Source: Planctomycetota bacterium
GTDB lineage: Bacteria; Planctomycetota; MHYJ01; JACQXL01
DNA: 62,661 bases
Assembly (NCBI GenBank): GCA_038059695.1
Contig: JBBTIZ010000004.1
Location: forward strand, 1 to 62,661
Direction: 5' to 3'
The position numbers and the translations under genes were made by a program. Below, one piece after another: positions 10,411-10,446 of the stretch; the stretch's first letter is position 1; the number at the start of each line of letters is the position of its first letter. The notes under the pieces were generated by a model. That model ran no database searches, was not told the DNA's origin, and saw only the letters and a list, made by a program, of their open reading frames with translations.

Positions 10411-10446
10411 TTACATTATATATCCCAAAATATAAATCACCAACTC
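10411..10446 (-). pseudogene. Orphan 3' end of another allele of the adjacent fibre gene (ELVIYILGYIM*)
   Basis: Same 11 residues plus stop as 10492-10527 but 6 of 12 codons differ, all synonymously. Confidence 0.85.

Follow-up and report, generated by a model that had tools for sequence, protein, structure and literature searches.

The question raised by this locus is why the end of a gene should be written a second time, in other codons, a short distance beyond its own stop codon. The window analysed here is a stretch of 62,661 nucleotides on contig C4 of a 1.27-Mb MAG (G000) that is 55% complete and belongs to an uncultured groundwater planctomycete with a small genome. A fibre-like gene, fib1, lies on the minus strand at positions 10492–11676, and its functional tail, the last 11 codons and a TAG stop, occupies positions 10492–10527 (minus strand, 10527 to 10492: GAG TTA GTA ATC TAT ATA CTT GGA TAT ATA ATG TAG). 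Exactly 45 nt past the stop (10491 to 10447), 11 codons and a TAA stop follow on the same strand at positions 10411–10446 (10446 to 10411: GAG TTG GTG ATT TAT ATT TTG GGA TAT ATA ATG TAA), which will be called the relic. Seven bases differ between the two (gene/relic: A/G, A/G, C/T, A/T, C/T, T/G, and G/A), six of them at third codon positions and one at the first position of a leucine codon (CTT/TTG). All seven differences are silent and both copies translate to ELVIYILGYIM*, so that the sequence bears out an earlier note on this DNA, which had described a silently recoded copy of the last 12 codons of the fibre gene 45 nt past its stop.

The arrangement is not an artefact of assembly, since positions 10240–10600 have been recovered with 0 mismatches from four independent assemblies (ERZ1292633, ERZ1292625, ERZ1292624, and Logan ERR3858121). 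These represent three Hainich H41 samples and the Logan assembly of ERR3858121, span coverages from 5x to 62x, include one different assembler, and each encode the exact fibre protein. A join of two strains during assembly was the danger that the earlier note saw for its own reading, and it is removed by the identity of all four assemblies across both junctions. A chance match is excluded by a search of the whole 1.27-Mb assembly, in which the 36-mer was found, at up to 10 mismatches, solely at the ends of family genes.

The silent nature of the differences is informative. Only 21 of the 108 possible single substitutions in the tail are silent, and the probability that seven random substitutions would all be silent was found by simulation to be 1–4 × 10⁻⁵. 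By this substitution pattern, the relic diverged while it was coding, as the end of a working gene. The lack of any non-silent change in it further indicates that it has been non-coding only recently, relative to the divergence of the paralogues.

The protein encoded by fib1 (P0001, 394 aa) is built of a shaft of ~11-residue repeats and a C-terminal head of ~100 aa. The shaft repeats, which make up the N-terminal two-thirds, match phrog_892 (E = 3.9 × 10⁻⁴⁶), and among the 19 matches there are 10 other tail or tail-fibre PHROGs, again via the shaft repeats; a profile search gave no Pfam match. From this sequence evidence we infer that the protein is a fibre. The AlphaFold model is confident only at the C-terminal ~100 residues, where a beta-sandwich head is predicted with moderate confidence (residues ~290–394, pLDDT 66–81), and the tail would form the terminal beta-strand of this modelled head. 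A structural search with the head returned no match at E ≤ 0.001, the top weak matches being TNF/C1q-like jelly rolls and trimers. Two residues of the tail, G391 and Y392, are invariant across 23 homologues.

The gene is part of a two-gene module, of which there are two copies in the window and at least 12 in the assembly. Its upstream partner, up1 (11814–12614, minus strand), encodes a 266-aa protein that has no Pfam or PHROG match, is 38% identical to that encoded at positions 50245–51039, and has at least 12 paralogues in the assembly. The second copy of the module (50245–52146, plus strand) consists of a 264-aa gene and a 315-aa type-B fibre gene, fib2, with a two-hairpin leader of its own (51141–51182). 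On contig C40, a fibre gene is found without the usual 266-aa partner. The neighbours of fib1 are a type III methylase and restriction enzyme, a nucleotidyltransferase, and small cassettes or unknown small genes, with no virion genes among them. A search of viral contigs returned only distant relatives of the shaft, and nothing for the 266-aa partner.

At least 13 full genes of the fibre family are dispersed on the chromosome of this half-complete MAG, and dozens are present in its relatives. A search of the assembly with the tail pattern recovered 13 full genes and 5 orphan tails, while same-family relatives gave 36–62 matching segments each. Related shafts carry at least three types of head and tail, which end in ELVIYILGY, NPYV[IV]GY, or LTL[YW]ITVVGY, and the identity between family copies is mosaic. 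In this assembly and the same-genus genome G001, 23 tails of the ELVIYILGY type encode the same peptide and differ pairwise at 3–12 of 33 nt, almost always silently.

The relic in the window is nearest to the tail of a paralogue on contig C40 (4 of 33 differences) and is farther from that of its own gene (6 of 33). The same holds elsewhere. In every comparable pair among the nine relics compared, the relic is farther from the adjacent gene than from another paralogue; one relic in G001 (L068), for example, differs from the adjacent gene at 37 of 117 nt and from another paralogue at 22 of 117. Relics and their own genes differ by 0–9 amino acids, and the ratios of silent to non-silent codon changes between gene and relic are 13:4, 14:2, and 17:9. 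On these nucleotide comparisons, the relic is the tail of a family member and was not derived from the adjacent gene. The earlier conclusion that this is not a recent tandem duplication is upheld by the exclusively silent differences (p of ~10⁻⁵) and by the closeness of the relic to the C40 tail. The same differences support the further claim that the relic is the tail of a diverged allele that was under selection as far as selection is concerned, but the supposed allele is better described as a paralogue from a multicopy family.

The 45 nt between the gene and the relic form an element of two hairpins (10447–10491, minus strand), which reads TG, a first hairpin, hp1, TCCGCCACAGGCGGA (10489–10475), and then TCTAA-hp2-TAAGA (10474–10447), where hp2 is ACTTGCCCGTACGGGCAAGT. 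The spacer folds with −32.3 kcal/mol (z = −4.2), and the two hairpins seen earlier between gene and relic are therefore present. They do more than separate the two copies, since they belong to a dispersed intercistronic element whose 3′ end marks the junction with the relic, which begins directly after TAAGA. Another copy serves as the leader of fib1 itself (11689–11760, minus strand), between the upstream 266-aa gene and the fib1 start codon. There are 36 copies of the element in the assembly, and 22–25 of them precede an SD sequence and a gene start (within 25 nt, ORF of at least 60 aa), fibre genes included. The hp2 stems of the 36 copies have at least 12 different sequences, all complementary, and the near-identical hp2 on contigs C31 and C73 show compensatory stem changes. 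Neither the spacer nor the leader has an Rfam match. A profile search of the assembly identified two Y1 (HUH) transposase genes (PF01797; C11:13300–13632 and C90:32334–32654), which are possible mobilisers of the abundant hairpin repeats.

Some other repeats and sites were noted in passing. At C40:35666–35706 (minus strand), the element and a good ribosome-binding site are followed by ATG TAA, a start codon directly before a stop, which may be the footprint of a deleted gene. A 62-nt repeat of two GC-rich hairpins is present in three copies that are 84–100% identical (6875–6936, 41241–41302, and 52912–52973) and constitutes a dispersed family distinct from the two-hairpin leader. At positions 44218–44481, at least five head-to-tail units with a 44-nt period are arranged around ATACCCTAT motifs; these iteron-like units are upstream of a low-GC block (44.8–49.7 kb, 36–39% GC). 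Just downstream of the relic, positions 10376–10399 (minus strand) form a hairpin, CTGACCCCGCTTTATTGGGGTCAG, that is single-copy in the genome and scores as terminator-like for the opposite (plus) strand only. The unique flank just after the relic reads AACACACACATACTGACCCCGC (10411–10390, minus strand).

The layout of gene, element, and relic recurs in many copies and genomes. Of 43 family genes sampled, ~13 have a relic of 4–40 codons behind them, and at least five genomes are represented: 4 of 13 genes in this assembly, 5 of 17 sampled in G001, 2 of 8 in G002, and 2 of 5 in other metagenomes. In the 12 cases besides the window, the relic is on the same strand as the gene, 5–190 nt downstream. 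In this assembly, a relic of 33 codons follows each of the genes that end at C23:81785 and C42:12140, and one of 5 codons follows the gene that ends at C19:10133. The G001 relics are 40, 20, 20, 20, and ~4 codons long. In G002 (MAG219), a 10-codon relic is present at locus L011, and at locus L014 a type-B gene is followed, 5 nt past its stop, by a type-C relic (TLWITIVRYVI*) in which the invariant Gly has changed to Arg, indicating decay; no hairpin element is present there.

Two relics are nested at locus L096 (JGI 3300025152), where the current gene is followed by a spacer, a 5-codon relic, a hairpin element, and a 20-codon relic. The inner block at this locus is 93% identical to the gene end and element at L099, and the older relic is interrupted by a ~115-nt MITE (~2830–2945) with terminal inverted repeats (CACCCCCACACCAATC...GATTGGTGTGGGGGT). 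In the window itself, an orphan type-B relic of 25 codons (QYAFTDAYGVVNVTFNPYVIGYVV*) occupies positions 7575–7649 (minus strand), ~2.8 kb from the relic behind fib1, without an adjoining fibre gene. Heptad repeats of the CCCGAAT type stand before it, and the nearest full gene, on contig C84, differs at 19 of 72 positions. At L059 (G007, contig C227), a fibre ORF has a non-family end and the canonical tail AELYLMGYIR* lies within 60 nt in another frame; this looks like a frameshifted gene or a sequencing error and not like a relic.

The relic in the window is in frame with its gene (81 nt, with no stop between). Elsewhere, only L068 in G001 is also open through to the relic stop; two more relics are in register with stops between, and three are out of register. 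Since the in-frame arrangement is not general among the loci, the frame in the window is treated as a coincidence, and read-through of the TAG, which was considered, has been rejected on this ground and for want of a suppressor tRNA among those found.

The right-hand junctions follow a regular pattern. After a fibre stop codon, the element is built of a GC-rich hairpin at 0–5 nt, TCTAA(G), a second hairpin, and (C)TAAGA, and the relic starts 0–3 nt after TAAGA in nine cases (the window, five in G001, L099, the inner layer of L096, and, with a variant element, L011). One further copy of the element after a fibre stop, on C23, has no clear relic behind it. A second dispersed repeat, which ends in ...GACCATTGCTTCGCAAAGGG, has the same role at the junction on C23, C42, and C19, and in the outer layer of L096. 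From gene end through spacer, C23 and C42 are 96–100% identical up to the junction, whereas past it their relics differ at 27 of 99 bases, with 18 silent and 4 non-silent codon changes. Three junction classes are distinguished, CTAAGA|CAGGC at five loci, ...CGCAAAGGG|CT(A/T)GGATAC in two genomes, and ...GGGGTGCC| at two loci. Within each class the relics have diverged, mostly silently, and the position of the junction is identical.

Comparison with a related strain places the relic near the edge of a variable region. The contig L033 lacks positions 10344–22550 of the window, ~12.2 kb, and there the lon gene adjoins a 155-aa gene, with the 3′ end of lon ~340 nt from it. The left edge of the variable region lies at positions 10343/10344, as the homology with L033 begins at 10343 and runs leftward. 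By this alignment, 10344–22550 is a strain-variable island, which holds the relic, the fibre module, the type III Mod/Res genes, a repeat array, and a five-gene operon; the relic is 68 nt inside its left edge. The 10-mer CACGGAGTTA (10352–10343, minus strand) corresponds to the codons that lead into the fibre tail (T-E-L) and lies exactly where the L033 homology begins. It was considered as a third relic and set aside, being inside a CACGGAG/CACAGAG heptad repeat and so probably coincidental. An allele ending in the relic codons (GAGTTGGTGATTTATATTTTGGGATATATAATGTAA) was not recovered, L033, the sole near-strain contig found, being without the whole locus. The same-genus genomes lack the flanking 155-aa gene, and the context is different in the same-family genomes and on two contigs that are more distantly related.

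A parallel is provided by a neighbouring cassette of 1.4 kb (~7951–9426), 1.5 kb from the relic, which holds a 116-aa gene and a nucleotidyltransferase gene. It is flanked by 74-nt direct repeats (7948–8021 and 9374–9447) that are 95% identical, with a 69-nt core at 97%, and that correspond to the 3′ end of a 110-aa gene (9365–9697). L033 has the empty site, in which the 110-aa gene is without the cassette, and the distal repeat in the window continues into sequence that in L033 lies just behind the gene. The empty site, together with this continuation into the resident flank, indicates that incoming DNA took the place of the resident 3′ end and that the old end was left downstream.

The reading that we favour for fib1, to which we assign a probability of about 0.7, is that the resident gene lost its 3′ end to the 3′ part of a paralogue, which brought along its stop codon and the trailing element, and that the old tail was left behind. 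C-terminal parts would be exchanged between copies of a large fibre-like family, the incoming segment comprising at least the end of the head, the stop codon, and the following 45-nt two-hairpin element. The left junction would be seamless, made by homologous recombination inside the gene, and the right junction would lie at the 3′ end of the element (TAAGA), 12 codons before the resident stop, so that the last 12 codons of the resident persist as an untranslated remnant. The right junction might arise in several ways: the element could first interrupt the tail, and a paralogue carrying the element behind its own stop could then serve as template for repair; a donor fragment could be joined illegitimately at an end defined by the hairpin; or an existing unit of gene, element, and relic could spread by gene conversion. 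Which tail is the old one, and with it the direction of the event, we infer. As the best reading, the replacement draws on the pattern across the family rather than on an ancestral allele of the fib1 locus, and the relic itself most likely has no function.

The earlier proposal that an incoming homolog replaced the resident gene gains from the type-C relic behind a type-B gene at L014, from the nesting at L096, and from the parallel of the nucleotidyltransferase cassette; what came in may have been the whole gene or only its 3′ part. Among 5.8 billion proteins searched for a donor, no head is more than 74% identical to that of fib1; thus either the event is not recent or the donor is unsampled. 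Some observations count against a simple random replacement, as no relic is longer than 40 codons and diverged relics share identical junction positions. In addition, the order of fibre gene, element, and real gene was met in none of the sampled cases, which makes the source of donors with a stop codon and element hard to place.

These difficulties would be met if a unit able to propagate itself, in which a stop codon and the hairpin element follow a replacement tail, entered fibre genes at defined positions within the conserved terminal strand and left the relics as its footprints. Just as splicing lets a homing intron spare its host gene, such a unit might keep the gene working by supplying a tail of its own. 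Its spread to other copies might depend on site-specific cleavage, either of the uninterrupted tail or at the TAAGA end, or else on gene conversion with the displaced tail as the right homology arm. The three junction classes with diverged relics at the same position are a hint in this direction, and we consider this reading speculative and unlikely. If it were true, the hairpin elements would be the active cassette boundaries of a head-swapping system in small-genome Planctomycetota.

The same layout could have been left by a deleted tandem neighbour. The element would then be the 5′ leader of a second fibre gene, and a deletion would have run from the ribosome-binding site to 12 codons before the stop. 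This agrees with the usual place of the element, which is a leader before an SD sequence and an ORF in 22–25 of its 36 copies, also in front of fibre genes, and with the sequence that follows TAAGA at the relic (GAGTTGGTGATTTAT), which resembles fibre leaders (GAGATTTGATTTATG, GAGGATTTATATG). However, an intact order of fibre gene, element, and fibre gene was found in 0 of ~43 sampled family genes. Random deletions are also unlikely to end 0–3 nt from TAAGA in five independent junction classes, would not always leave 40 or fewer of ~350 codons, and do not account for the relic at L014, which has no element at all. A deleted neighbour is improbable in the light of these points. Duplication in place, either by insertion of the element with a long target duplication or as an 81-nt tandem unit, followed by divergence in situ, fares slightly worse. 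Direct repeats do flank a small, dispersed, and probably mobile element in an assembly with two Y1 (HUH) transposase genes, and at L070 the gene tail and relic share a ~44-nt stretch with one difference, from which it appears that tail and relic can interact. A non-coding copy is nevertheless expected to gain mostly non-silent changes, and here 7 of 7 are silent; here as in every other case, some other paralogue is a closer match to the relic than the adjacent gene is; and the sequence upstream of the gene tail is unrelated to the spacer, so that there is no tandem unit. The duplicated lengths would range over 14–120 nt, and we know of no transposase footprint like these. Altogether, duplication in place is rather doubtful.

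A function for the second copy, as one of a pair of promoters, a read-through extension, a mini-ORF behind a leader, or a silent donor cassette for antigenic variation, is very unlikely. In the tail, TATAAT stands 17 nt downstream of a TTGGTG/TTAGTA box, but a promoter scan was negative for both copies, and TATAAT is missing from other family tails. A repeated phage-type promoter was also considered and rejected, as the 14-mer GGATATATAATGTA occurs only at these two sites, looser matches are at the level of chance, and the promoter scan found nothing. The relic stands in frame behind the TAG without another stop, and directly behind an element that normally precedes start codons; yet its position, length, and frame vary between loci, and no suppressor tRNA is among the 24 tRNAs found. 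Relics elsewhere have decayed, by the change of Gly to Arg at L014 and the MITE insertion at L096, and they cover only the invariant end of the protein, with almost no variation to donate. The least credible explanations, with hardly any probability left to them, are a DGR template and variable repeat and the chimera of two strains. There is a superficial likeness to a DGR in the direct repeat, followed by a hairpin, at the 3′ end of a gene of receptor-binding type, but no reverse transcriptase (PF00078) was found in the whole assembly, which is 55% complete, and the mismatches are not adenine-specific, involving all four bases in either direction. The suspicion of a chimera comes from the source being a metagenome assembly, and the agreement of the four assemblies stands against it.

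On the replacement reading, the relic is by itself a harmless scar and would be a dated record of the ends of fibre-like genes being overwritten by other copies. With ~30% of the sampled family genes scarred, exchange appears to be frequent in this lineage, in which contact with other cells is probably the task of the fibres. What deserves further work is the precise junction: relics joined to the 3′ end of the element offer a testable handle on the DNA end or site used in the exchange, and the junction of gene, element, and relic is a simple sequence signature with which such events could be found in other genomes.

Several known systems resemble parts of this picture. Mosaic phage tail-fibre and receptor-binding genes, and the MAT (mosaic adhesive trimer) fibres of Bdellovibrio (Caulton et al. 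2024, PMC10769870), share with the predicted fibres of this family repeat-built, trimeric-fibre-like shafts and interchangeable tips. MAT fibres are also encoded by chromosomal multicopy genes outside prophages, and neither leftover tails nor a junction-marking hairpin element is mentioned in the abstract of that report. The family of fib1 differs from phage tail fibres in having no virion genes nearby and at least 13 dispersed chromosomal copies. The spacer element is similar to REP/REPIN sequences, the hairpin repeats mobilised by Y1 (RAYT) transposases, in its short GC-rich hairpins, its dozens of intergenic copies, its covarying stems, and the presence of Y1_Tnp genes in the genome. It differs in being a fixed pair of different hairpins with conserved TCTAA...TAAGA connectors, located between a stop codon and the next ribosome-binding site. 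GTAG, the conserved 5′ motif of REP/REPIN, is found before hp1 only in those copies in which it derives from the fibre stop codon. Silent cassettes of the pilS kind carry the variable region that is donated, whereas the relics here hold the most conserved residues only.

By analogy, the closest described process is the displacement of C-terminal parts in rhs genes, in which acquired tips displace the resident ones and arrays of dissociated fragments are left downstream (PMC2935791, Jackson et al. 2009); orphan CdiA-CT/Rhs-CT modules are also described (PMC3150448, Poole et al. 2011). Common to both are a conserved family of multicopy genes whose C-terminal parts can be exchanged, a new 3′ end joined to the resident gene, and an old 3′ end immediately downstream, on the same strand and without a start codon, the displaced pieces decaying slowly. 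In both, successive events would give layered arrays, of which L096 has two layers and the window one adjacent relic and an orphan 2.8 kb away. On the other hand, the family, the organism, and the details differ. A displaced rhs piece keeps part of the core, the whole variable tip, and the immunity gene, and is re-usable, whereas in the fibre family only the last 4–40 codons survive, which encode the invariant terminal strand, the variable head is lost, and neither a toxin nor an immunity function is involved. The right junction of the fibre genes, moreover, lies mostly exactly at the end of a dispersed hairpin element, a feature that is not described for rhs.
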